Below are positions 109 to 10,871 of a stretch of DNA of 10,904 nucleotides, piece by piece. The notes under the pieces are model-generated. The model made no database searches and was not told where the DNA came from. It saw only the letters and a program-made list of their open reading frames with translations. The DNA is from a virus. Its lineage: Duplodnaviria; Heunggongvirae; Uroviricota; Caudoviricetes. Position 1 is the first letter of the stretch, and the number at the start of each line of letters is the position of its first letter. The position numbers and the translations under genes were made by a program. Location of the stretch: positions 1 to 10,904 of the IMG/VR virus record IMGVR_UViG_2660238215_000014; one strand, written 5' to 3'.

Positions 109-585
109 ATGGATCGTGAATTAAAAAATCTGCATCTGAATATTTCCCAACTGGCCGCATTATCCGGTGCTCATCGACAGACTGTTGCGGCTCGGGTAAA
201 AAACATAAGCCCAGCCGGTGGTCATGAGAGCAATCTCAAACTGTACCGACTGACAGATATCCTTGCCGAGCTGATGAAAGCTCCTCTGCCTGTAGATAAC
301 GAGGAAATGGATCCTCATGCGCGTAAAGCATGGTACCAGTCAGAACGTGACCGACTGAAATTTGAGCAGGAAACTGGTCAGCTTGTGCCAGTCAGTGATG
401 TCAGGCGGTCCTTTTCTGTCGTGGTGAAAGCGATAGTTCAGGTACTGGAAACCTGGCCTGACCGGCTGGAGAGGGACAGGGGGTGGACCGCATCACAACT
501 GAATGAAGTACAGATTGTGGTTGATGAGATCCGCGACACACTGGAAAAGGCAGTCATTGACTGTTGTGATGAGGCCGATATGTGA
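109..585 (+). CDS. terS: Phage terminase small subunit (Nu1-like, N-terminal helix-turn-helix DNA-binding domain)
   Basis: 158-aa ORF with good RBS; N-terminal motif LNISQLAALSGAHRQTVAARV resembles the winged-HTH of small terminases; its stop overlaps the start of the gpA-type large terminase ORF (GTGA at 582-585), the classic terS-terL coupling. Confidence 0.65.
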   Translation: MDRELKNLHLNISQLAALSGAHRQTVAARVKNISPAGGHESNLKLYRLTDILAELMKAPLPVDNEEMDPHARKAWYQSERDRLKFEQETGQLVPVSDVRRSFSVVVKAIVQVLETWPDRLERDRGWTASQLNEVQIVVDEIRDTLEKAVIDCCDEADM

Positions 586-1589
586 ATCAGGTGAACGAGA
601 GCCATAGCCGCGCATCCGATATCTGGCGCGAAGTGGCCTCGCTGTTTCGCCCACCCAGCCGGTTACCAGTAGCGGAAGCCATCAGGCGTTATATGCGGGT
701 TCCACGGGGAGCCAATACTTCCGGTCCGTGGGAGTCATCGCTGACGCCCTATATGATTGACCCCATTAATACATTATCAGCCCGTGAATATGACGCGGTG
801 GTGTTTGTGGGACCTGCGCGAACCGGGAAAACCGAAGGGCTGATTGATGGCTGGATTGTGTACGGCATCATCTGTGATCCGGCGGATATGCTGGTGGTGC
901 AGATGACTGAGACGAAGGCGCGTGAGCATTCCAGAACGCGTCTTTCCAGGACGTTTCGCCACAGTCCGGAGGTCAGCAAGCGCCTCAGTCCTTCCCGTAA
1001 TGACAACAACGTCCACGATAAAATGTTTCTTGACGGCTCCTTCCTGAAGATTGGCTGGCCGTCGATCACCGTCTTTTCCTCTTCGGATTACCGTCGTGTG
1101 GCGCTGACGGATTATGACCGTTTCCCTGAAAACGTGGACGGGGAAGGGGATGCCTTCACGCTGGCCTCAAAGCGTACCACCACCTTTATGTCCTCGGGGA
1201 TGACCCTGGTCGAGAGTTCACCGGGGCGGGATATCACCGATACCAAATGGCGTTGTGGTGGCGCACATGAGGCACCGCCAACAACGGGGATCCTGTCACT
1301 GTATAACCGGGGAGACCGCCGCCGGTGGTACTGGCCGTGTCCGCACTGCGGGGAATATTTTCAGCCGGTGATGGATAACATGACCGGATACCGGAATAAC
1401 CCGGATTTTGTGGCTGCCGGTCAGGCTGCCCGTCTGATGTGTCCGCATTGTCGCGGGCTGATTGCCCCTGAGCAGAAACGCGAACTGAATAACCAGGGGA
1501 TCTGGCTTCGTGAAGGTGAACGGGCGGCGGCGGACGGCAGTATCACCGGAACGCCACGAAACTCCCGGATTGCGTCATTTTGGATGTAG
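582..1589 (+). pseudogene. terL: Large terminase, lambda gpA family, N-terminal fragment only (335 aa versus about 640 aa expected)
   Basis: Walker A GPARTGKT; paired CxxC motifs (CPHCGEYF ... CPHCRGL) as in lambda gpA from memory; gpA-like similarity continues to the last residues (GIWLREG ... ASFWM), then a TAG stop at 1587-1589 coincides with a sharp shift to AT-rich non-coding DNA. No continuation in any frame. Confidence 0.8.
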
Positions 1590-1750: not shown

Positions 1751-2989
1751 ATGTCGGTAAAGCCATTAACCGTGACTGAAGTTAAGGGGATGAAACCACG
1801 TGAAAAGGACTATGCCGTTTATGATGGGTTCGGTTTATTGCTGAATGTGAGTAAAGCCGGTGGGAAAGTGTGGCGTTTCCGTTATAGCCATCCGATAACG
1901 AAGAAACGGCAGACATACACGATAGGACGTTTTCCTGAATTCTCACTCGCGGAAGCACGGGAAGTACGTGATGAACTTCGGCGAATGATTGCACGTGGAG
2001 TTGATCCAGTGACGGAGAAGAAAAATCGTAAAATTGAGATGTCACTAAAAAATCTACAGACATTTGAAGCTGTTGCTAATGCATGGTTCGCTTTTAAAAA
2101 GGGATCTGAATTGCGGAAACCTACGCTGTATAATATCGAATATGAAGTATACAAATATCTTGTTCCTTTCTTTGGTAAGTACAGTATAGAAAAAATTACA
2201 GCACCAGTAGCTATTAATGCTCTGGATGCCGTATCCGATAAGAATGCGTTGCAAAAAAAATTAATATCAAGATTAAATGAAATTATGAATTATGCTGTAA
2301 ATTGTGGAGCATTGAAAGCAAATCCATTACTTAAGATAAAGACTGCATTCACAGGAAAGAAAAATAAATCATTAGCAGCACTACCTGTTGAAAGATTGCC
2401 TGAATTTCTGAGCTGGTGGGATAGTGTGCCTCATACCTATCAAATAGCTCATAATGCACTTTTATTCCAGATATTGACAATGGTTAGGCCAGGTGAGGCG
2501 ATTAAAGCAGAGTGGTCAGAGATTGATTTTGATTCTGGCTTGTGGATTATCCCCGCGCATAAAATGAAATGCCATCGTGAACATGTTGTTCCCTTGTCAT
2601 CACAGGCTATTAGTATCCTCAGAACAATGCAGGAAATAAAAAGAGGGCGTTATGTGTTTTTTTCCTCCAGAACAAAAGATGCGCCTATGGGGAGGAATAC
2701 TATCAAGACCCCAATTGCTGCCAGCAAGTTCAAAGGGATTGTAACGTTACATGGTTTTCGTTCAATGTGGAGTACGCTTTTAAATGAGGAGGGATTTAAC
2801 CCCGATGTAATCGAGGCTGCATTGGCGCATAAAAGTGGTGATAAAATAAGAGATATTTATAATAGAACTATTTATCTAGAACAGCGTAAGATCATGATGC
2901 AATGGGTCGGTGATTTTTTTGATGATGCGAGAAAAGGGGTAATTAATAGATCCGGTGGTATGAAAGGTTTAAGAGTAGTAAATGGTTGA
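1751..2989 (+). CDS. int: Tyrosine site-specific integrase, P4-like family (N-terminal arm-binding domain plus catalytic domain)
   Basis: 412 aa; N-terminus GLLLNVSKAGGKVWRFRYSHP...GRFPEFSLAEAREVRDEL matches the P4-type integrase arm-binding domain; C-terminal catalytic signature R (MVRPGEA), HGFRSMWST, LAHKSGDKIRDIYNRTIY with terminal Tyr. RBS GAGGG 6 nt upstream. Gene is markedly more AT-rich than its neighbours. Confidence 0.9.
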   Translation: MSVKPLTVTEVKGMKPREKDYAVYDGFGLLLNVSKAGGKVWRFRYSHPITKKRQTYTIGRFPEFSLAEAREVRDELRRMIARGVDPVTEKKNRKIEMSLKNLQTFEAVANAWFAFKKGSELRKPTLYNIEYEVYKYLVPFFGKYSIEKITAPVAINALDAVSDKNALQKKLISRLNEIMNYAVNCGALKANPLLKIKTAFTGKKNKSLAALPVERLPEFLSWWDSVPHTYQIAHNALLFQILTMVRPGEAIKAEWSEIDFDSGLWIIPAHKMKCHREHVVPLSSQAISILRTMQEIKRGRYVFFSSRTKDAPMGRNTIKTPIAASKFKGIVTLHGFRSMWSTLLNEEGFNPDVIEAALAHKSGDKIRDIYNRTIYLEQRKIMMQWVGDFFDDARKGVINRSGGMKGLRVVNG

Positions 2990-3002
2990 GGAGGTTCAGC
3001 AA

Positions 3003-3206
3003 ATGAATACCAATGAAGATATTTTATTTACTAAAGACGTAATGAAAATCTTGCGATATGGAGCAATGAGTGCATTCATCAATTTCTGGAAAGATGAGAA
3101 TAATGGTTTTCCTCAGCCGTTCAGAATTGGACGACGACATACCTGGCACCGTAGAGATGTAGAAGCATGGTTAGATAAACAACGAGAACAGGCCAATCCC
3201 CACTAA
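3003..3206 (+). CDS. alpA: AlpA/Vis-like small HTH transcriptional regulator or excisionase
   Basis: The track ORF starts at 2982, but a strong SD GAGGAGG (2988-2994) sits 8 nt before the in-frame ATG at 3003, giving 67 aa. Motif FPQPFRIGRRHTWHRRDVEAWL fits the AlpA family (FP-P-ilG-r---W---dV--Wl). Immediately downstream of int in the same orientation, as in P4 (vis) and Gram-negative PICIs. Confidence 0.75.
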   Translation: MNTNEDILFTKDVMKILRYGAMSAFINFWKDENNGFPQPFRIGRRHTWHRRDVEAWLDKQREQANPH

Positions 3207-3220
3207 TAATATCTTTCATA

Positions 3221-3245
3221 CCCCGCGTGCAATGCGGGGTTTTTT
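3221..3245 (+). terminator. Rho-independent terminator after int-alpA
   Basis: Stem CCCCGC (3221-3226), loop GTGCAAT, stem GCGGGG (3234-3239), followed by TTTTTT (3240-3245). Confidence 0.7.
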
Positions 3246-3265
3246 GTATGTGAGGTAAAAAAGAA

Positions 3266-3847
3266 ATGAATAAAAATATTGCCGTGACGGGCAAGGGTGA
3301 CGCACGTCATGTAAAAAAATTCTGTGATATTCGTGATCTGGTCGTTCTGCGCTTTGATAGTGTGAACGTTCGCGTGGTGTATCTGAACGGCGATCCGTGG
3401 TTTGTTGCAAAGGATGTTTGTGTTGCTCTGGAAATAAGTAACTCACGCGATGCTCTAAAAGCACTAGATGCGGATGAAAAGAAAACCGTCGCTTTAAGCT
3501 ACGGTATTCGAGGAAATCCAAATCATAGCCTCATTTCTGAATCCGGTTTTTACAAGCTGATCGCCAGAAGTCGGAAAGCTGTTACTCCTGGCACGTTCGC
3601 CCATCGTTTCAGTAACTGGGTATTCAGGAATGTGATACCGGGTATCAGAAAAACGGGGGCTTATGGTATCCCGTGGGGTGTAGTACAGGATTTTTCCCGC
3701 CGCAAAGAGCAATACCAGATAAGTGCCAGCGAGAAGGGGAGGGCGCTACAGGCATGTAAGCGCAAAAAACGTGAACTGGAGGAAGAAGAAAAAAGGCTGA
3801 TACGTGAATATCAGCCTGAGTTTTACTTTGGCAACCGCATTCAGTGA
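3266..3847 (+). CDS. Bro-N domain protein (antirepressor-like N-terminal domain, short coiled-coil-like C-terminus, no obvious KilA-C domain)
   Basis: 193 aa; hallmark Bro-N motifs VRVVYLNGDPWFVAKDVCVALEI ... SGFYKLIARSRKAVTPGTFAHRFSNWVFRNVIPGIRKTGAYG; SD GAGG 10 nt upstream of ATG 3266; C-terminal 50 aa rich in K/R/E. Confidence 0.8.
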   Translation: MNKNIAVTGKGDARHVKKFCDIRDLVVLRFDSVNVRVVYLNGDPWFVAKDVCVALEISNSRDALKALDADEKKTVALSYGIRGNPNHSLISESGFYKLIARSRKAVTPGTFAHRFSNWVFRNVIPGIRKTGAYGIPWGVVQDFSRRKEQYQISASEKGRALQACKRKKRELEEEEKRLIREYQPEFYFGNRIQ

Positions 3848-3879
3848 CAAAACAAAGGCGACCCGGATCAGAGGTCGCC
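3847..3879 (-). terminator. Putative rho-independent terminator for the minus-strand RHH gene
   Basis: Inverted repeat GGCGACC (3857-3863) / GGTCGCC (3873-3879) with 9-nt loop; on the minus strand the hairpin is followed by TTTGTTTTGT (complement of 3847-3856). Confidence 0.5.
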
Positions 3880-3970
3880 AATGGGAAAACACTAAACATA
3901 AGCCCAAACATCATAGCGATTTGTTGGCTGGTGGGCAATGTGATCAGTGTGCTGGCTTGCTGGTGGATTG

Positions 3971-4153
3971 TCAGCCTTTTGGTTCTATGCCTTCTTTGCG
4001 TAGCTTGTCACGACAGGCATTTTTAACCCATGAACTGAAATTACCAGGCCCAGCAACTTCGTTAATTTGTTGCAACAATGTGTCTTCGAAGCGGATGTTT
4101 TTCTTTGTGCTGCCGGAGCGATCAAATTTTGGTTTCTCATTTTTTTCTTGCAT
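3971..4153 (-). CDS. Small ribbon-helix-helix (Arc/CopG-like) DNA-binding protein; candidate repressor of the element
   Basis: 60 aa; segment KKNIRFEDTLLQQINEVAGPGNFSSWVKNACRDKL has the beta-strand / helix / G-x-S / helix pattern of RHH proteins. It is the only convincing minus-strand gene, divergent from the rightward operon, with palindromic operators at its 5' side and a hairpin terminator at its 3' side. Confidence 0.5.
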   Translation of the reverse strand: MQEKNEKPKFDRSGSTKKNIRFEDTLLQQINEVAGPGNFSSWVKNACRDKLRKEGIEPKG

Positions 4154-4198
4154 TGGTACGTACCACCATTATAAACTGAAACCCAATGGTACGTACCA
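4154..4198. promoter_or_regulatory. Two copies of the perfect 12-bp palindrome TGGTACGTACCA (4154-4165 and 4187-4198) bracketing a -10-like TATAAA; putative operator pair in the divergent promoter region
   Basis: Both copies read directly; 33 bp centre to centre (about 3 helical turns). Rightward -35-like TTGCAT (4148-4153) and -10-like TATAAA (4170-4175); on the minus strand a perfect TATAAT lies between the palindromes (complement of 4167-4172). Confidence 0.6.
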
Positions 4199-4298
4199 TG
4201 TTGAAGATACGCAACCATTAAATACAGCGAAGCCCCGCAGTGGTGGAACACTCGCAGGGCTTCTAACCACCAACGATAGCAAGATTATCGAGGTAGCT

Positions 4299-4490
4299 AT
4301 GTTAAATCATACCACACACCCGCAAGGGCGGGACTTGCACAACCTGAATAAATTCACCTGGCGTTTTATCGCCCTGAGCACGGCACAACCGCGCGTGATT
4401 ACCATTGAGGCCACCAGCGAACAGGAAGCACGCCAGCAATCTCCTGATGGCTGCGTGATGGTATTCGCTGCCCGTATTCGTCAGGGGTAA
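4299..4490 (+). CDS. Small hypothetical protein (63 aa), first gene of the rightward operon; function unknown
   Basis: ATG 4299 preceded by GAGG (4289-4292); corresponds to the C-terminal in-frame part of track ORF 3804-4490, whose upstream part looks non-coding. I have a vague, unverifiable recollection of Icd-like annotations on similar small proteins. Confidence 0.45.
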   Translation: MLNHTTHPQGRDLHNLNKFTWRFIALSTAQPRVITIEATSEQEARQQSPDGCVMVFAARIRQG

Positions 4491-4493
4491 GTC

Positions 4494-4859
4494 ATGCATA
4501 ACCTGTCAATTTCTGACCTTAACTGCATTCAGTTTGACGAGAAATTTACCGGGCAGCTACTGGTCCATGTGGAGAACGGGCGCATAGTGCGTAATTACCA
4601 CCTGCCGGATGGTGCAATTGCCGGAAGCGTTGAAGCATTGCTGGAACTGGCAGAACGTGCGCGACTGATTAAGCCGTTAACGAACCATCACGATGATGAT
4701 CTGCATTTTACCGGACGCATGGTGAGTCACTACGAAAACGGCGTCGAGGTATCCCGCGAACGGCTGCGTGATGATTGCTGTTTCGGCACACTGCCGGAAT
4801 TTATCGAGTTGCTGACCAGTTGCGGTTATCAGGTCATTCAGGGGGGTAAACATGCGTGA
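4494..4859 (+). CDS. Hypothetical protein (121 aa) made of two tandem copies of a roughly 50-aa domain (FTG-x-LV-x3-ENG ... L-x-ELL)
   Basis: SD AGGGG 7 nt upstream. Internal duplication visible in the translation: FTGQLLVHVENGRIVRNYHLPDGAIAGSVEALLELAERA versus FTGRMVSHYENGVEVSRERLRDDCCFGTLPEFIELLTSC. Confidence 0.6.
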   Translation: MHNLSISDLNCIQFDEKFTGQLLVHVENGRIVRNYHLPDGAIAGSVEALLELAERARLIKPLTNHHDDDLHFTGRMVSHYENGVEVSRERLRDDCCFGTLPEFIELLTSCGYQVIQGGKHA

Positions 4860-5085
4860 TGATCGTTTTAATTCCCTGAAACGGGAATTTGATGGCGCAC
4901 AGGAAGATGCAGCGGGCGCATTGTTGAGCGTTGCTGACATGATGAAAGCTGCATATTTTCTTATCAATACCAGTGGCTACAAGTCAGAGGGTGAAATGAT
5001 TCTTAGTATTGCGTCGGACTATGCGGAATATGTGGCAGAGACGCGTTACAGAAGAAAATTCACGGAGGATGTAAGCCATGCATAA
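4852..5085 (+). CDS. Hypothetical protein (77 aa)
   Basis: ATG overlaps the end of the previous gene by 8 nt; SD GGGGGG upstream; acidic, helical-looking sequence, no recognisable motif. Confidence 0.5.
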   Translation: MRDDRFNSLKREFDGAQEDAAGALLSVADMMKAAYFLINTSGYKSEGEMILSIASDYAEYVAETRYRRKFTEDVSHA

Positions 5086-5279
5086 TCATGAAGCGCATGT
5101 ACCCGTAGTGCTTAATGTGCCAGATGATTTCACCGGACGCGTACTGGTTTACCTGGATAAAGGGAAAGTGAAATCACAATGCCGACTGAAAAGTAATGAG
5201 ATTGTTGGTTCTCCTGAATTTTTTTTCTGAACTTTGTATTCGTGCGGAAATAAAACCGGAACTGCTGACAGGAAAATAA
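5078..5279 (+). pseudogene. Third copy of the FTG domain (paralog of 4494-4859), interrupted by a frameshift at a T8 homopolymer (5219-5226)
   Basis: ATG 5078 overlaps the previous stop (ATGCATAA). Frame 1 gives MHNHEAHVPVVLNVPDDFTGRVLVYLDKGKVKSQCRLKSNEIVGSPEFFF* (stop 5228-5230); the +1 frame continues SELCIRAEIKPELLTGK* (stop 5277-5279), which aligns with the ELAERARLIKPL part of the paralog. Not in the ORF track because each piece is under 60 aa. Confidence 0.5.
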
Positions 5280-5283
5280 AACC

Positions 5284-5574
5284 ATGAAAAAGAAAAATTC
5301 TGGCTTTACTGCCAGCGGCCTCTCTCGGCCTGAAATCCGCCCCGGTGATATTTTCCGGGACACCAGACGCGGTGGACGGGTGGTTATTCGTCACGTTACG
5401 CCAGGCAATATCACCTACCGCCGTGAGGCTTACGAATATGACTGCGTAATGCCGCGCCGTCAGTTTGATCGTGATTTTATTCTGGTGGAAAACAAACAAC
5501 AGGCAGTGGCGAGACGTGCAGCCACGAATATTAAAAAAATCCGGGCAATGTTGGTTGCGGGAGGTAAGAAGTGA
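5284..5574 (+). CDS. Hypothetical basic protein (96 aa), immediately upstream of and coupled to pri-rep
   Basis: ATG 5284 after AAAACC; stop overlaps the GTG start of the primase gene (GTGA 5571-5574); K/R-rich, no recognisable motif. Confidence 0.5.
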   Translation: MKKKNSGFTASGLSRPEIRPGDIFRDTRRGGRVVIRHVTPGNITYRREAYEYDCVMPRRQFDRDFILVENKQQAVARRAATNIKKIRAMLVAGGKK

Positions 5575-7370
5575 AAAACGCACCGAGTCTAAAATATCAG
5601 CTGAAGGATAAATTCACTGAGGTAATCATTTTTGCCGGGACGGATGCTTACGCCCATGCTCAACACTGGATTGAAAGTGAAGGACGAAAACACGGCGATA
5701 ACGTGCCTCCTGTTTACCTGGGGCCAAAGCAACTGGCAGACCTGGCGAATATCCGCATTATTGACGAGAAACGCCGTTTTGCGCGTGTCTATATCGCGGG
5801 GGAGATAGAGCCAATCCAGATCAATACTATCGCTGAAAAGCTGGCGCTGGCTGGCGTACAGGAGGCGAAATTATACAAAGGTATCACCGACCAGGAACCG
5901 GAGAACTGGCGCGACTACCTGCAACGGATCCGCGAACAGGCTGAGCACGGGGAAGTTTCAGTGATGAAATTAGCTACAAAAAATAGTGGTCTACCCAAGC
6001 CTGCATTAAATCAGATGGGAGCCAGCCAGAGAGGGGAAGTGTTACTTGAACATTATGGAGGAGCACTGGCGATTCATGCTGACTCTGACACTGTTCACCA
6101 TTACAACGGCGTTGTATGGGAGCCAGTACAGGATAAAGAATTACAGCGAGCTATGGCACAGATTTTCATTGATGCGGAGATCAGCTATTCGCAGAACGCC
6201 ATTAAATCGGCGGTAGATACCATGAAGTTAAGTTTGCCTGTAATGGGGAATACAGCCCGTAACCTGATTGGATTCAGTAACGGTGTTTTTGATACCCGGA
6301 CAGGCGATTTTCGGGAGCATAACAAAAACGACTGGTTGTTAATTGCCAGTGAATTACCTTTCAGCCCACCAGCAGAGGGGGAAACGCTGGCAACACATGC
6401 GCCGAATTTCTGGAAGTGGTTACGCCGTTCGGTGGCTGAGAATGACCGCAAGGCGGATCGCGTACTGGCTGCATTATTCATGGTGCTGGCGAACCGGTAC
6501 GACTGGCAGTTATTCATTGAGGTAACAGGTCCAGGGGGAAGTGGTAAAAGCGTGATGGCGGAGATTTGCACCATGCTGGCGGGTAAGGCCAACACGGTAT
6601 CGGCAAGCATGAAGGCGCTGGAAGATGCCAGGGAACGCGCGTTAGTGGTTGGCTTTTCGCTGATTATCATGCCGGATATGACCCGCTACGCTGGTGATGG
6701 GGCAGGGATTAAGGCTATTACAGGCGGTGACAAGGTGGCAATTGACCCGAAACACAAAGCCCCCTACTCAACGCGTATTCCGGCAGTAGTGCTGGCGGTT
6801 AACAATAACGCCATGTCATTCAGTGACCGCAGCGGGGGGATCTCACGTCGTCGGGTGATATTCAATTTTTCGGAAGTTGTACAGGAGAACGAACGCGATC
6901 CAATGCTGGCGGAAAAAATAGAAGGTGAGCTGGCGGTAGTGATTCGCCATCTGCTTACACGGTTTGCTGACCAGGACGAAGCCAGACGCCTGTTATATGA
7001 GCAGCAGAAATCTGAAGAAGCACTGGCGATAAAGCGAGAGGGGGATTCGCTGGTGGACTTCTGCGGCTATCTCATGGCGTCGGTAATGTGTGATGGCCTG
7101 TTAGTGGGTAATGCTGAAATTGTACCATTCAGCCCACGCAGGTATCTCTATCATGCCTATCTGGCTTATATGCGGGCACATGGGTTTGGTAAACCTGTAA
7201 CACTGACTCGCTTCGGTAAAGATATGCCGGGGGCAATGGCGGAATATGGCAGGGAGTATATGAAACGGAAAACGAAGCACGGTTTGCGTTCAAACGTGAC
7301 ACTGATGGAGGAATCAGAAGACTGGATGCCATCATGTGTATCGGTCACTAATGACGATAGCAAAAATTAA
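5571..7370 (+). CDS. Replication initiator primase/helicase (pri-rep; P4 alpha-like / D5-type SF3 helicase with P-loop)
   Basis: 599 aa, GTG start with SD GGAGGT (5560-5565); Walker A GPGGSGKS near residue 310 with downstream hydrophobic strand and acidic motif (LIIMPDMT); N-terminal region resembles a primase/Toprim-like domain; cognate iteron origin lies immediately 3' of the gene. Confidence 0.8.
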   Translation: MKNAPSLKYQLKDKFTEVIIFAGTDAYAHAQHWIESEGRKHGDNVPPVYLGPKQLADLANIRIIDEKRRFARVYIAGEIEPIQINTIAEKLALAGVQEAKLYKGITDQEPENWRDYLQRIREQAEHGEVSVMKLATKNSGLPKPALNQMGASQRGEVLLEHYGGALAIHADSDTVHHYNGVVWEPVQDKELQRAMAQIFIDAEISYSQNAIKSAVDTMKLSLPVMGNTARNLIGFSNGVFDTRTGDFREHNKNDWLLIASELPFSPPAEGETLATHAPNFWKWLRRSVAENDRKADRVLAALFMVLANRYDWQLFIEVTGPGGSGKSVMAEICTMLAGKANTVSASMKALEDARERALVVGFSLIIMPDMTRYAGDGAGIKAITGGDKVAIDPKHKAPYSTRIPAVVLAVNNNAMSFSDRSGGISRRRVIFNFSEVVQENERDPMLAEKIEGELAVVIRHLLTRFADQDEARRLLYEQQKSEEALAIKREGDSLVDFCGYLMASVMCDGLLVGNAEIVPFSPRRYLYHAYLAYMRAHGFGKPVTLTRFGKDMPGAMAEYGREYMKRKTKHGLRSNVTLMEESEDWMPSCVSVTNDDSKN

Positions 7371-7382
7371 ACTTATGGAATA

Positions 7383-7613
7383 ACTGTTCACCACTGTTCA
7401 CCCTGTCATAAATATCTTTTATATCAGTATATTATAGGGTGAACAGTTATTTATTAACTGTTCACCAAACTATTCACTGTTCACCTTTTTGATTGTTTAT
7501 TGAGCTTCAAGGGTGAACAGTGGTGAACAGTTGGTGAATAGTTTTTGTGAAACTGTTCACCAATTAACATTATGAATTAAAAGATAAAATATCAAAAGGT
7601 GAACAGGTGAAGG
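7383..7613. repeat. Replication origin: array of TGTTCACC iterons in both orientations with AT-rich spacers
   Basis: Perfect forward copies at 7385-7392, 7395-7402, 7459-7466, 7478-7485, 7554-7561; perfect inverted copies (GGTGAACA) at 7438-7445, 7512-7519, 7522-7529, 7598-7605; degenerate copies at 7471-7478, 7533-7540, 7606-7613; AT-rich stretches 7403-7437 and 7562-7597. Confidence 0.85.
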
Positions 7614-7657
7614 GTTAAAACGCAAAAATTTTAATTTACTGCTGTGAGATAAAGCCT

Positions 7658-7903
7658 ATGACAGCGAAGCACACAAAAAAATCACAATCGCACGCCCTTG
7701 ATTTGACGGAACACTGGTTAAGGGTGTCGATAAAAATCATCGACCGCAACGCCGGGGAAGGATATGCGAAAGCACATCCCGAACTAATAATCGCATTCAT
7801 GACCACGGCGGCGGCAAACTTTGCCACGCTGACGGAACGGGAGATTGCCGAAGCGGAACAGGTAACAACCATCAACGTTAAAACCGGAGAGGTGGAATCA
7901 TGA
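7658..7903 (+). CDS. Hypothetical protein (81 aa)
   Basis: ORF downstream of the origin; its stop overlaps the SSB-like start (ATGA 7900-7903), suggesting an operon; no recognisable motif. Confidence 0.4.
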   Translation: MTAKHTKKSQSHALDLTEHWLRVSIKIIDRNAGEGYAKAHPELIIAFMTTAAANFATLTEREIAEAEQVTTINVKTGEVES

Positions 7904-8323
7904 CAGCACAGATAGCCGCTTACGGGCGGCTGGTGGACGACCCGCAGGTAAAACAGACCAGCAAGGGCACACCGATGACGCTGGCGCGTATGGCGGTCCC
8001 CCCTTCCGTGCAGCCAGGCAGATGACGGAACGGCGACGATGTGGTTATCCGTCCTGGCATTTGGCAGACAGGCCGAAGCACTGGAAAGGCACCGCAAGGG
8101 TGAACTCCTGAGCGTGGCGGGTAACATGCAGATCAGCCAGTGGACTGGGCAGAACGGAGAAACGCGGCAGGGCTGGCAGGTTATCGCAGACAGTGTAATC
8201 AGTGCGCGAACGGCGCGACTGGGCGGCAAAAAAGGTCAACAAGGCCAGGCTACTGACGCGCTGAACAGGGCAAAACAACAGGCGGGGAATGATGATCCGT
8301 ACGGGGATAACATACCGTTTTAA
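7900..8323 (+). pseudogene. ssb: Single-stranded DNA-binding (SSB)-like gene split by a frameshift at a C6 run (7998-8003)
   Basis: Frame 1 from ATG 7900: MTAQIAAYGRLVDDPQVKQTSKGTPMTLARMAV..., resembling the SSB N-terminus ([27 protein letters not shown]), stop at 8023-8025. Frame 2 open from 7979 through track ORF 8039-8323: ...WLSVLAFGRQAEALERHRKGELLSVAGNMQISQWTGQNGETRQGWQVIADSV ... DNIPF, resembling the SSB OB-fold core and IPF tail. Confidence 0.6.
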
Positions 8324-8339
8324 GCGACGAGTGACAGAA

Positions 8340-8361
8340 GCCGGAGCAATCCGGCTTTTTT
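8340..8361 (+). terminator. Rho-independent terminator after the SSB-like gene
   Basis: Stem GCCGGA (8340-8345), loop GCAA, stem TCCGGC (8350-8355), then TTTTTT (8356-8361). Confidence 0.75.
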
Positions 8362-8445
8362 ACGGGTCCTCCTGGCGGGGTGGGCCTGAACACGGGGCGA
8401 CGGGCGCGGAAAAAGGCGCATTTTTTGATTTTTATGGCACCATCA

Positions 8446-8523
8446 CCACCACTATAAGCTATTGATATATTGAGGAATAAAAATTTTTAGTGTCGAATCA
8501 GGTTGTTTTTTGTTCATCACTGG
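8446..8523. repeat. Copy B of the 78-bp imperfect direct repeat (copy A at 1-78)
   Basis: See copy A. Weaker homology continues about 25 bp further (TTTACA ... CAGG) with an indel. In copy B the -10-like element of copy A is replaced (CAAAAA in place of CATAAT). Confidence 0.85.
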
Positions 8524-8790
8524 AACGTTCCCGAAAACATTTACAAAAAAACAGGCGCAAAAAAAAGCGCCCCCGATTGCTGTTACCGGAGGCGCTTTTA
8601 CACGACAAAGGAGTTTTTATCGCCAGGATGACGAGTCTTAATATTGCTTCAATGGCAAAAATGCGTCAATGGCTTTGCCTCTCTGAGAATAATCAGAAAA
8701 AACATAATCTGATTTTCAGGTAGAAAATGATTTATCTATTGCTTTTATCGATCAATAATGATGCCCGTTAATCAAAACGGAGGCGGATTT

Positions 8791-8985
8791 ATGCCAGAGA
8801 ACAACACCAGAAAGCCGGATAAAAGTGCCACGGTACACATAGACGCCGGAACTATGGAGAAGATCGAACGCTATCAGCAGTTCATCAAAGATAATCACCC
8901 GGGTATGCCGGTACCCACGAAAGGACAAATCACACGCAGCGCGGTTGAATACTGGTACCAGGCAACGTTAGGAGCCTGGCTATGA
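8791..8985 (+). CDS. Small hypothetical protein (65 aa from ATG 8791; track start 8758), possibly RHH-like, translationally coupled to the protease-capsid gene
   Basis: Strong SD GGAGG (8779-8783) 7 nt before ATG 8791; stop overlaps the capsid ORF start (ATGA 8982-8985); pattern ATVHIDAGTMEKIERYQQFIK ... TKGQITRSAVEYWYQA is compatible with a beta-strand / helix / helix fold. Confidence 0.45.
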   Translation: MPENNTRKPDKSATVHIDAGTMEKIERYQQFIKDNHPGMPVPTKGQITRSAVEYWYQATLGAWL

Positions 8986-10871
8986 AAACATGGTTTTCCA
9001 TTAAGGCTATGGCAGATGTTGTCTATGTGCGTATTTATGACGAGATCGGCGGGTACGGTGTAAAAGCATCGACACTTACTGACGAGATCAACGCGTGCGG
9101 TAATGCGTCTGAAATCCATCTTCGCATCCATTCACCTGGTGGCGACATCTTTGAAGGGCTGGCTATCTATAACGCCCTGAAAAATCATCCGGCAAAGAAA
9201 ATTGTACACATTGAAGGCATGGCGGCTTCTATGGCCTCGTTTATTGCCATGTGTGGCGATCACATCGTTATGCCTGAAAACGCGATGATGATGATACATG
9301 CCCCCCGTGGTGTTACTGCCGGAGTGTCGGGCGACGTTCGCCGCTTTGCTGACCTGATGGACAAGCTGGGCGACACGATGGCGGAAACCTACGCCGGAAG
9401 AACGGGCAGGAGCAAACAGGAGATCACCTCAATGATGGAGGCGGAAACCTGGATGGATGGCAATGAGTGTAAGGCTAACGGCTTCGCAGATGAGGTTATA
9501 CCCGCGATTACAGCAATGGCCCGAATTGAATCAAAACGAATCGGAGATTTTTCAAATATGCCGGAAAAAATTAAAAGCATGATCAGCCAGAAAACTGGCA
9601 GTGGCGAACAGGAACGACTTAACGGAATCCGTGAATTGTTTGGCACCTTCAACGGAAGATATAACGACCTGGCTATAAGTTGTCTTGCGGATTCAGAATG
9701 TAGCGTTGAGAATGCACGCGAACGCCTTTTACTCGCTATGGGTAAAGAATCAACGCCAACAAACAAAACCACCCCCGCAAATCTTTACTACGCGTACACG
9801 GATAACGGCAATATAACCGGCGATGCCATGCGTCAGGGGCTTAATGCGCGTCTTGGTCACGAACGGGCCGAACGCGGTAATCCTTACGCCATGATGAGCC
9901 TTTTCGATATGGCACAGGCATCATTAACCCATCGTGGTATAAGCACGGGCAGCTACAGCACACGCTCGCAGATAGTAAACGCGGCATTCACCCACAGCAG
10001 CAGCGATTTTACCGATATCCTTGCTGGTGGCGCTGAAAAATCAGTGCTTGCAGGCTGGGAGCACAGCGGCGAAACATTCCGCCAGTGGACGAAAAAAGGT
10101 TCCCTTTCAAACTTCCGGGAAGCCCGCCGCGTTGGTATGAATGGCTTCTCAACGTTAAACAAAGTGCCGGAAGGGGCAGAATATAAATACATCACCACCA
10201 GCGATCGCGGTGAACCCATCGCGCTGGCTACTTACGGGAATATTTTCAGTATTACCCGCCAGGCGATAATCAATGATGACCTTGATCAGTTATCAACGGT
10301 GCCAATGGCTATGGGCCGTGCAGCATCAAGAACGGTGGGAAATCTGGTTAATCTGGTGCTTACAGGCAACGTAAAACTTTCTGACGGAATAACGCTGTTT
10401 GACAAAAAACACAGCAACCTGATTGAAACAGGACTGACAACACCGGGACTTAGTGCAGCACGTCACCTGATGCGCACACAGAAGGACAAAAATGGCGAAG
10501 TGCTGAATATTGCGCCTAAATTCCTTTTAGTTCCGGCAGCACTGGAAGATCGCGCGTTGCAGATGATTAACTCAACCGCACCTTTCGGGGCTGATAAAAA
10601 CAGCGGGATCTTTAACCCGTATCACAAGCTACTTGATATCATCGTCGATCCCCGCCTTGATGATATCAGCGAAAAACAATGGTACATGCTTTCCGCACAG
10701 GGAACGGACACAATCGAGGTGGCTTATCTTGATGGCAATGACGAGCCTTACCTTGAACAGCAGGAAGGTTTTATCGTTGACGGCGTGGCCTGGAAAGTCC
10801 GTATTGATGCAGGTGTGGCAGCTCTGGATTATCGCGGTATGGTCAAATCAGGCGGGACAGATTCACTATGA
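8982..10871 (+). CDS. Prohead serine protease (ClpP/S14-like) fused to an HK97-fold major capsid protein
   Basis: 629 aa; N-terminal region has ClpP-like signatures (HSPGGDIFEGLAIYNAL, catalytic Ser context GMAASMASF, His context MMMIHAP); the C-terminal 350 aa or so resemble phage major capsid proteins; followed directly by a strong terminator, typical of a highly expressed capsid gene. Confidence 0.8.
   Translation: MKTWFSIKAMADVVYVRIYDEIGGYGVKASTLTDEINACGNASEIHLRIHSPGGDIFEGLAIYNALKNHPAKKIVHIEGMAASMASFIAMCGDHIVMPENAMMMIHAPRGVTAGVSGDVRRFADLMDKLGDTMAETYAGRTGRSKQEITSMMEAETWMDGNECKANGFADEVIPAITAMARIESKRIGDFSNMPEKIKSMISQKTGSGEQERLNGIRELFGTFNGRYNDLAISCLADSECSVENARERLLLAMGKESTPTNKTTPANLYYAYTDNGNITGDAMRQGLNARLGHERAERGNPYAMMSLFDMAQASLTHRGISTGSYSTRSQIVNAAFTHSSSDFTDILAGGAEKSVLAGWEHSGETFRQWTKKGSLSNFREARRVGMNGFSTLNKVPEGAEYKYITTSDRGEPIALATYGNIFSITRQAIINDDLDQLSTVPMAMGRAASRTVGNLVNLVLTGNVKLSDGITLFDKKHSNLIETGLTTPGLSAARHLMRTQKDKNGEVLNIAPKFLLVPAALEDRALQMINSTAPFGADKNSGIFNPYHKLLDIIVDPRLDDISEKQWYMLSAQGTDTIEVAYLDGNDEPYLEQQEGFIVDGVAWKVRIDAGVAALDYRGMVKSGGTDSL

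Follow-up and report, generated by a model that had tools for sequence, protein, structure and literature searches.

Predicted FsoA/Rem-type small antirepressors, one of them in tandem form, in the early operon of an Escherichia coli phage-inducible chromosomal island

The closest described counterparts of the proteins reported here are small antirepressors of lambdoid prophages. FsoA of Fels-1 relieves repression by the Gifsy-2 repressor, and GfoA and GftA bind their own repressors in complexes consistent with an A2B2 composition; the repressors concerned belong to the DicA/RacR group and are short and non-cleavable (PMC3121763). Rem raises the activity of the DicA-repressed promoter dicBp 165-fold; acting by way of DicB and DicF, it also leads to filamentation (PMC10448788). 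Among satellites, P4 has the gene order vis, an Icd-like open reading frame (ORF), epsilon (the 'helper derepression protein', with an 8-nt overlap with the Icd-like ORF), two small genes and the primase gene. We analysed an operon located at positions 4299-5574 of a 10,904-nt viral stretch (IMG/VR record IMGVR_UViG_2660238215_000014, the whole of which is called the window below). The element that carries it is a phage-inducible chromosomal island (PICI) of Escherichia coli inserted within a lambdoid prophage's terminase gene, that is, a PICI of the helper-embedded kind (HE-PICI).

The operon contains five small ORFs of 63, 121, 77, about 66 (frameshifted) and 96 amino acids (aa), designated ORF1 to ORF5, which precede pri-rep; their sizes and coordinates agree with a preliminary description made from the sequence of the window. 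None of the five had been considered assignable to a known family, but profile searches placed four of them (ORF1, ORF2, ORF4 and ORF5) and left ORF3 as an orphan. By sequence similarity, ORF2 and ORF4 belong to the FsoA/Rem family of small antirepressors (Pfam PF27490). They share with FsoA and Rem a domain made of a beta-hairpin (FTGR..V...ENG) followed by a helix (..F.ELA..AG), and ORF4, when intact, is of similar size (66 aa, compared with 78 aa for FsoA and 83 aa for Rem). The fsoA gene likewise lies in an early operon under the control of the repressor of its own element and not of LexA. The present proteins differ from FsoA and Rem in being encoded by a satellite, in the presence of three copies of the domain per operon, two of which are fused, and in a sequence identity to FsoA of 31-40%. 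GfoA and GftA, small proteins that bind non-cleavable DicA-like repressors, can also be aligned in register with the profile of this domain, but their similarity is marginal, and their genes are under LexA control and share a transcript with a homologue of dinI.

ORF2 holds the slot of P4 epsilon, directly 3' of the Icd-like ORF and upstream of the primase gene, and by analogy the two proteins may do the same job, the inactivation of a helper repressor. BLASTP and hidden Markov model (HMM) searches gave no match to epsilon, and the likeness is one of position and proposed function only. The target of epsilon is the P2 C repressor, whereas that of the FsoA/Rem family is a DicA/GtgR-type repressor of lambdoid phages. 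EcCICFT073 (stretch 7853-10996) and Sakai Sp7 (22501-25001; reported as OI-51) share with the window a frame of an Icd-like gene, a cassette, an rgdR gene and pri, the frame of EcCICFT073 also including, as in the window, a YlcI/YnfO gene on the minus strand; however, their small genes are different and encode no such domain. The window resembles HE-PICIs in its int, AlpA-like, Bro and pri genes, its captured capsid gene and its site in late gene A (terminase large subunit). In the portion of the HE-PICI paper covered here (PMC10111431), gene A is one of the four main target genes, and the alpA-pri zone is described as a dynamic 'Bro zone' whose small genes are not tied to FsoA or Rem. The operon with its Icd-like and RgdR genes was already known, as was the embedded arrangement, and the proteins with the repeated domain are annotated as hypothetical. 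New are the placing of these proteins in the FsoA/Rem family, their tandem form and the proposal that lambdoid helpers could be derepressed by Gram-negative PICIs; we found no link of PICI genes to FsoA/Rem antirepressors in the literature searched.

The repeated FTG domain and its relatives

A domain of about 50 aa, called the FTG domain after its motif, had been noted twice in ORF2 and once in ORF4, two genes further on. Comparison of local alignment scores with those of 2000 shuffles showed that this repeat is above chance, with z-scores of 9.1 between the N- and C-terminal halves of ORF2, 13.6 between the N-terminal half and ORF4, and 6.4 between the C-terminal half and ORF4, while control alignments with ORF1, ORF3 and ORF5 gave values of about 0 to 2. 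The halves of ORF2 and the restored ORF4 aligned in register along an FTG-x-hydrophobic strand, an E/D-N/K-G turn, a second strand and an E-L helix. The repeat underlying the proposed motif (FTG-x-LV-x3-G ... ELL ... IKP) was thus recovered, but 'IKP' is present in only two of the three copies. The local domain amplification put forward at the same time was an overstatement; the three copies are only 27-34% identical to each other and share no long DNA repeat, and they are old paralogues and not the product of a recent amplification. The sole sequence shared by the FTG genes at the DNA level is a 15-nt junction, GTAAGYCATGCATAA, found at both gene starts (4487-4501 and 5071-5085). Relative to N1420, the window lacks a 74-aa gene (phrog_5146; N1420 locus 6264-6488); the two sequences differ cleanly by 218 bp at the junction, which is consistent with a cassette exchange at GTAAGYCATGCATAA. 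Recombinants between FTG paralogues are common in the protein database, where deletion hybrids of 67, 73, 83 and 91 aa, joined at several registers, are found together with an ORF2/ORF4 hybrid.

The results of our HMM searches showed both domains of ORF2 (independent E-values of 8.7e-19 and 1.4e-18) and the truncated ORF4 (E = 4.6e-20); ORF2 also matched phrog_340 in two stretches. A profile of 11 sequences (profile A3), made of the two domains of the window and E. coli satellite paralogues only, retrieved about 100 representative clusters (50% identity) from 1.84 billion proteins, most of them single-domain proteins of 60-90 aa, and reached FsoA-like representatives at E = 2e-9 and 3e-8. Fels-1 FsoA itself scored 48.7 bits against this profile (E = 6e-8 at full library size). 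With a 54-sequence profile from which FsoA-like rows had been removed, scores of 82, 32 and 35 bits were obtained for FsoA, K-12 Rem and a Rem-like ORF of E. coli strain 8E, respectively, and hhalign of the FTG profile to Rem gave a probability of 95%. BLASTP aligned FsoA with the restored ORF4 (34% identity over 50 aa, E = 2e-7), with ORF2 (31% over 39 aa) and with the second domain of ORF2 (40% over 47 aa, E = 8e-7). The similarity of ORF2 and ORF4 to experimentally tested members of the family is significant. Some homologues of ORF2 bear the precomputed Pfam label PF27490, 'Rem'; the Pfam copy searched held no model for the FTG domain, and PF27490 was seen only as this precomputed label.

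Close relatives of the Fels-1 ORF STM0898.2n were found among the matches of profile A3. The first residues of this ORF (MNSQQMM) and its last residues (EAGIRFEEISNVG) are encoded by primers le154 and le162 (Lemire et al., Table S1, PMC3121763), and because these primers encode both of its ends, STM0898.2n is fsoA.

Proteins in which the FTG domain follows a Bro-N, ORF6N or AntA/AntB N-terminus were found too; N-termini of these kinds are characteristic of phage antirepressors. Against the family pattern of single-domain proteins of about 60-85 aa, ORF4 has 66 aa when intact and 50 aa in the window, and the two-domain ORF2 has 121 aa. The AlphaFold model of a single domain was confident, with a predicted local distance difference test score (pLDDT) of 86, and consisted of a beta-hairpin and then a helix; Foldseek searches with this model gave nothing significant against the PDB and one uncharacterised homologue in BFVD. 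The model of the entire two-domain ORF2 was poor (pLDDT 61) and was kept out of the fold search. Sequence searches of the PDB with the FTG profile, with ORF1, with ORF5 and with an ORF3 profile returned chance matches only.

The break in ORF4 is due to one extra thymine, eight being present at positions 5219-5226 of the window where N1420 has seven and an intact gene of 66 aa. The intact 66-aa protein is found on at least 1000 contigs, whereas the exact 50-aa product of the window is on 9 contigs; among further slipped alleles, one of 57 aa occurs on 52 contigs and one of 49 aa on 15. These counts indicate that the T run is a slippage hot spot and that the window holds a rare inactivated allele, although the eighth thymine may be a sequencing error. 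A programmed frameshift at this run was rejected as unsupported, because the intact seven-thymine form dominates and the +1 and -1 alleles are both sporadic. Five guanines instead of six in the G run directly 5' of the ORF3 start lead to a fusion of ORF2 and ORF3 of 196 aa (P0099), found on at least 131 contigs; this natural fusion hints that the two products work together.

Proposed derepression of the helper and competing readings

On the strength of this homology we favour, with moderate confidence, the reading in which ORF2 and ORF4 inactivate DicA/GfoR-type repressors of helper prophages. Opening of the switch located upstream of the operon would lead to joint production of the Icd-like protein, the antirepressors, the RgdR-type ORF5 and Pri-Rep. 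ORF2, as well as ORF4 when intact, would bind short, non-cleavable repressors of the DicA/RacR/GfoR/GtgR type and strip them off their operators, so that the helper and other resident lambdoid prophages would be induced or locked in lytic growth. With its tandem domains, ORF2 may contact the two subunits of one repressor dimer or else act on two repressors of different kinds. The host prophage of the window is represented by that of the O111:H8 strain 8E, a strain with 97% identity to the window across 94% of the window's length. This prophage encodes a repressor of 154 aa with a C-terminal LF..LPE.E motif shared with DicA (E = 6e-6) and GfoR (E = 3e-4). The helper is a likely target because of the presence of this repressor type in the 8E prophage and of ORF2 in the epsilon slot; the occurrence of the FTG domain behind Bro-N, ORF6N and AntA/AntB N-termini and the lack of a LexA box near the switch point in the same direction. 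Helper-phage interference, derepression and other accessory activities had all been offered as roles for these genes; derepression is the one that the homology to FsoA and Rem now backs. The anatomy of the operon, the family memberships, the synteny with P4 and the type of repressor in a near-identical host prophage are shown, and from them we infer which repressors are targeted, that they are bound and what this does to the helper.

Several observations weigh against this proposal. The window ends before the immunity region of the prophage, so that the repressor is known only from its relative in 8E, and one of the two putative antirepressor genes, ORF4, is inactivated in the window. GfoA aligned in register with the FTG profile but weakly (hhalign E = 8e-4, probability 25%), and in a distant homologue (P0316), located in a similar AlpA-bearing, satellite-like context, an FTG-type domain is fused to a DnaG CHC2 zinc ribbon, which points to replication. 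Gram-negative PICIs have been described as induced by their helpers through AlpA (PMC6092414), in which case an antirepressor directed at the helper would act after the helper had already been derepressed. The titre and the CI expression of the helper Kapi1 were left unchanged by EcCIMP1 (PMC11773190), a PICI known here by its phenotype alone. Finally, the FTG gene is missing from the model PICI EcCICFT073, and its function is therefore accessory.

A bolder form of the antirepressor reading, which we regard as doubtful, is that ORF2, acting as a 'single-chain dimer', and its paralogue trigger SOS-independent induction of lambdoid prophages repressed by DicA/RacR-type proteins, the FTG cassette setting the range of prophages induced in polylysogenic enterohaemorrhagic E. 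coli (EHEC). If this were true, Gram-negative PICIs would, as P4 does, rouse their helpers and not just wait for them. Should antirepressors of the FsoA/Rem type be present in many PICIs, induction of lambdoid prophages with SOS-insensitive repressors could be brought about by some satellites, and satellite activity would be linked to prophage induction and to the toxic cryptic-prophage genes kept silent by such repressors in polylysogenic pathogenic E. coli. A common set of 'hypothetical proteins' gains a family name from the present assignment, and the tandem form lends itself to testing in what way such antirepressors contact a dimeric repressor.

The operon could instead be a growth-arrest or superinfection-exclusion module, fired when an incoming phage disturbs the satellite switch, a serious alternative that we judge unlikely. 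A six-gene locus of ECOR61, extending from an Icd-like gene to a DNA primase gene, halts growth upon expression of the phage accessory gene orf24, and suppressor insertions hit the Icd-like gene as well as the two small genes that follow it, of 61 and 63 aa (bioRxiv 10.1101/2023.04.06.535777). The locus has the layout of the Sp7 version, and these sizes match those of ECs1578 and ECs1579 of Sakai Sp7, which are in an operon with the same frame as that of the window. However, the Sakai Sp7 small genes that match the ECOR61 genes by size gave no match to the FTG domain, and PADLOC gave no match for any protein of the operon. Growth arrest and antirepression are also compatible with each other, since antirepressors that free the kil genes of cryptic prophages arrest growth too, as Rem does via DicB and DicF. 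Slightly less likely is an action of the FTG proteins on something other than a helper repressor, either on the circuit of the satellite itself (inactivation of the YlcI/YnfO protein, with positive feedback) or as general partner-binding modules of a Bro network. Such an action agrees with their location within the switch-controlled operon, with the recurrence of the FTG domain as a C-terminal module in proteins of the Bro-N, ORF6N and AntA/AntB kinds and with the presence of a gene for a Bro-N protein just upstream. On the other hand, the two family members that have been tested act on helix-turn-helix (HTH) repressors of the DicA/GtgR type and not on DUF3950 proteins, and EcCICFT073 has the same switch, with YlcI/YnfO and Icd-like genes, yet no FTG gene.

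The location of the FTG genes directly upstream of the primase-helicase gene, as well as the CHC2 fusion in P0316, would also fit a role as replication accessory proteins acting alongside Pri-Rep, such as its loading or the recognition of the origin. We consider this quite improbable, since fsoA is in the left (recombination/accessory) operon of Fels-1 and rem is beside hokD in Qin, neither of them adjoining a replication gene, and since EcCICFT073, which has no FTG gene, reportedly undergoes autonomous replication upon overexpression of AlpA. Homology of the small ORFs to housekeeping replication accessory proteins, named in the preliminary description as an observation that would speak against its reading, was not found. 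The frameshift of ORF4 in the window and the frequent slipped, recombinant and truncated variants could suggest that the small ORFs are decaying or spurious frames without function. This is highly improbable and is disfavoured by the intact lengths that are kept in homologues down to about 25-50% identity, by the approximately 100 clusters and the confident fold of the single domain described above, and by the measured activity of FsoA/Rem family members.

The operon, its switch and the host prophage

The features of the window are listed in Table 1. ORF1 and ORF2 are separated by 3 nt, ORF2 overlaps ORF3 and ORF3 overlaps ORF4 by 8 nt each, ORF4 and ORF5 are 4 nt apart, and ORF5 overlaps pri-rep, the last gene of the operon, by 4 nt. 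Such short gaps and overlaps throughout indicate close packing of the genes into a single, translationally coupled unit. The tight coupling noted earlier, and the view of these genes as a coupled early operon of a phage satellite that runs into pri-rep, are both supported. The ORFs are conserved as well, the exact ORF2, ORF3 and ORF5 proteins being found on 769, 292 and 820 contigs, respectively, and part of the 1.5-kb region matching 1604 of 5426 complete E. coli genomes. Comparison of the window with N1420, EcCICFT073 and Sakai Sp7 showed a fixed frame around a mosaic of interchangeable small genes, this conserved frame consisting of the Icd-like gene, a variable small-gene cassette, the RgdR-type DUF4222 gene and the primase-helicase gene.

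Table 1. Coordinates of the genes and sequence features of the window
Feature	Position	Strand	Description	Profile match
TerL, N-terminal half	109-1589		C-terminal half located 3' of the element in 8E	
PICI	1751-10871			
YlcI/YnfO-family (DUF3950) gene	3971-4153	-	60 aa, divergent	PF13132, E = 5e-8; NF041551, E = 2e-7
Candidate promoter	4148-4175		TTGCAT-16-TATAAA, read from the sequence	
Palindromes TGGTACGTACCA	4154-4165 and 4187-4198		perfect, 12 bp; candidate operators	
ORF1	4299-4490	+	63 aa, Icd-like; counterpart of P4 kil/eta	NF033153
ORF2	4494-4859	+	121 aa, two tandem FsoA/Rem-type domains	
ORF2, domain 1	about 4533-4679	+		
ORF2, domain 2	about 4698-4847	+		
G6 run	4841-4846	+	directly 5' of the ORF3 start	
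ORF3	4852-5085	+	77 aa, orphan family conserved in PICIs	phrog_24341
ORF4	5078-5279	+	66 aa if intact; single FsoA/Rem-type domain	
ORF4 as written in the window	5078-5230	+	50 aa; the other frame carries on to 5279	
ORF5	5284-5574	+	96 aa, RgdR paralogue	DUF4222
pri-rep	5571-7370	+	599 aa, GTG start at 5571	D5_N, DUF5906 and Pox_D5
ClpP-protease/major-capsid fusion gene of the PICI	8982-10871			

ORF1 scored 71.5 bits against the Icd-like model NF033153 (cut-off 25; E = 4e-20) and is 94% identical to the Icd-like protein of EcCICFT073 and 48% identical to Sakai ECs1577. Its domain is also that of the C-terminal part (eta/kil) of the P4 'cI ORF' (E = 7.8e-21, 73.9 bits). The frame of ORF1 is open for 228 codons upstream (3804-4490), where it spans the antisense YlcI/YnfO gene and reaches back as far as the end of the Bro-N gene. 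In EcCICFT073 the third of the small genes encodes a homologue of ORF3 (54% identity). No relative of ORF3 was present in Pfam, the PDB or the profiles searched, and comparison with the 74-aa gene of N1420 showed no relationship.

The DUF4222 protein ORF5 (PF13973, 68.4 bits, E = 4e-19) is encoded directly upstream of pri-rep in a PICI. It shares 48% identity over its full length with Sakai ECs1581 (RgdR) and 51% identity with the EcCICFT073 homologue. RgdR, which activates LEE (locus of enterocyte effacement) and represses motility, is specified by every E. coli PICI analysed by Fillol-Salom et al. Its RGD tripeptide is reported to be needed for the activation of type III secretion, and an R20C variant is reported to be inactive (PMC10877973). 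The RGD motif is kept by RgdR and by the EcCICFT073 homologue, whereas ORF5 has PGD instead (RPGDIFRD compared with MRGDIYRD in RgdR). A DUF4222 gene was also located in the left operon of the CFT073 lambdoid prophage that adjoins EcCICFT073 (prophage stretch 15192-15431), which indicates that RgdR-type proteins are common to satellites and helper-type phages.

The 60-aa YlcI/YnfO-family protein is presumed to be the regulator of the switch upstream of the operon, its gene being in an equivalent position in EcCICFT073 and N1420. Two copies of the palindrome TGGTACGTACCA, 33 bp apart, lie between this divergent gene and the Icd-like gene (2 matches for 0.23 expected), the first of them falling in the spacer of a candidate promoter, and they are probably operators of the switch. 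No LexA box was found near the switch, so that in this respect the genes resemble fsoA, which is controlled by the repressor of its own phage, rather than gfoA.

The leader between the switch and ORF1 contains a hairpin (4230-4272; GAAGCCCCGCAG...CGCAGGGCUUC) with a folding z-score of -2.7, whose loop, GUGGUGG, is complementary to a CCACCA just downstream. This pairing recalls the RNA-RNA interactions of CI and seqA in P4, and the hairpin is unclassified. The Rfam searches, at the gathering score and at E-values up to 10, gave no C4, isrK or other RNA in the leader or the operon, and no P4-type CI/C4 immunity RNA with target sites was found around ORF1. The stretch of the hairpin is conserved in N1420, while the sequence upstream of it is not.

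The best genome matches of the window are EHEC chromosomes. In strain 8E, the element of about 10 kb cuts terL of a lambdoid prophage into N- and C-terminal parts and carries int, an AlpA-like HTH gene, a Bro-N gene, the YlcI/YnfO gene on the minus strand, the operon, a gene for a single-stranded DNA-binding protein (SSB) and a ClpP-protease/capsid fusion gene. Its int, AlpA-type and pri-rep genes in one direction, its size and its location within a late gene of the helper are the characters of a Gram-negative PICI or HE-PICI. A gene of the ClpP-protease/major-capsid type is also annotated, with a frameshift, in the 8E host prophage. N1420 has an operon 97.8% identical to that of the window, with the additional 74-aa gene, in a PICI that adjoins proA and a tRNA-Thr gene. 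The SSB gene of the satellite appears to be split in the window into ORFs of 41 aa (7900-8025) and 94 aa (8039-8323) and is a second disrupted gene of the contig; an intact SSB of 140 aa is present at the equivalent place in 8E.

The prophage of 8E that carries the PICI is Rac-like, with recET, kilR and ydaT. Beside its hokD gene is the Rem-like ORF mentioned above, of 57 aa (stretch 293-463), which appears to be intact and is annotated in RefSeq as a partial pseudogene. The same prophage has an ORF6N gene with a C-terminal FTG-like domain, broken by a stop codon (stretch 2237-2800).

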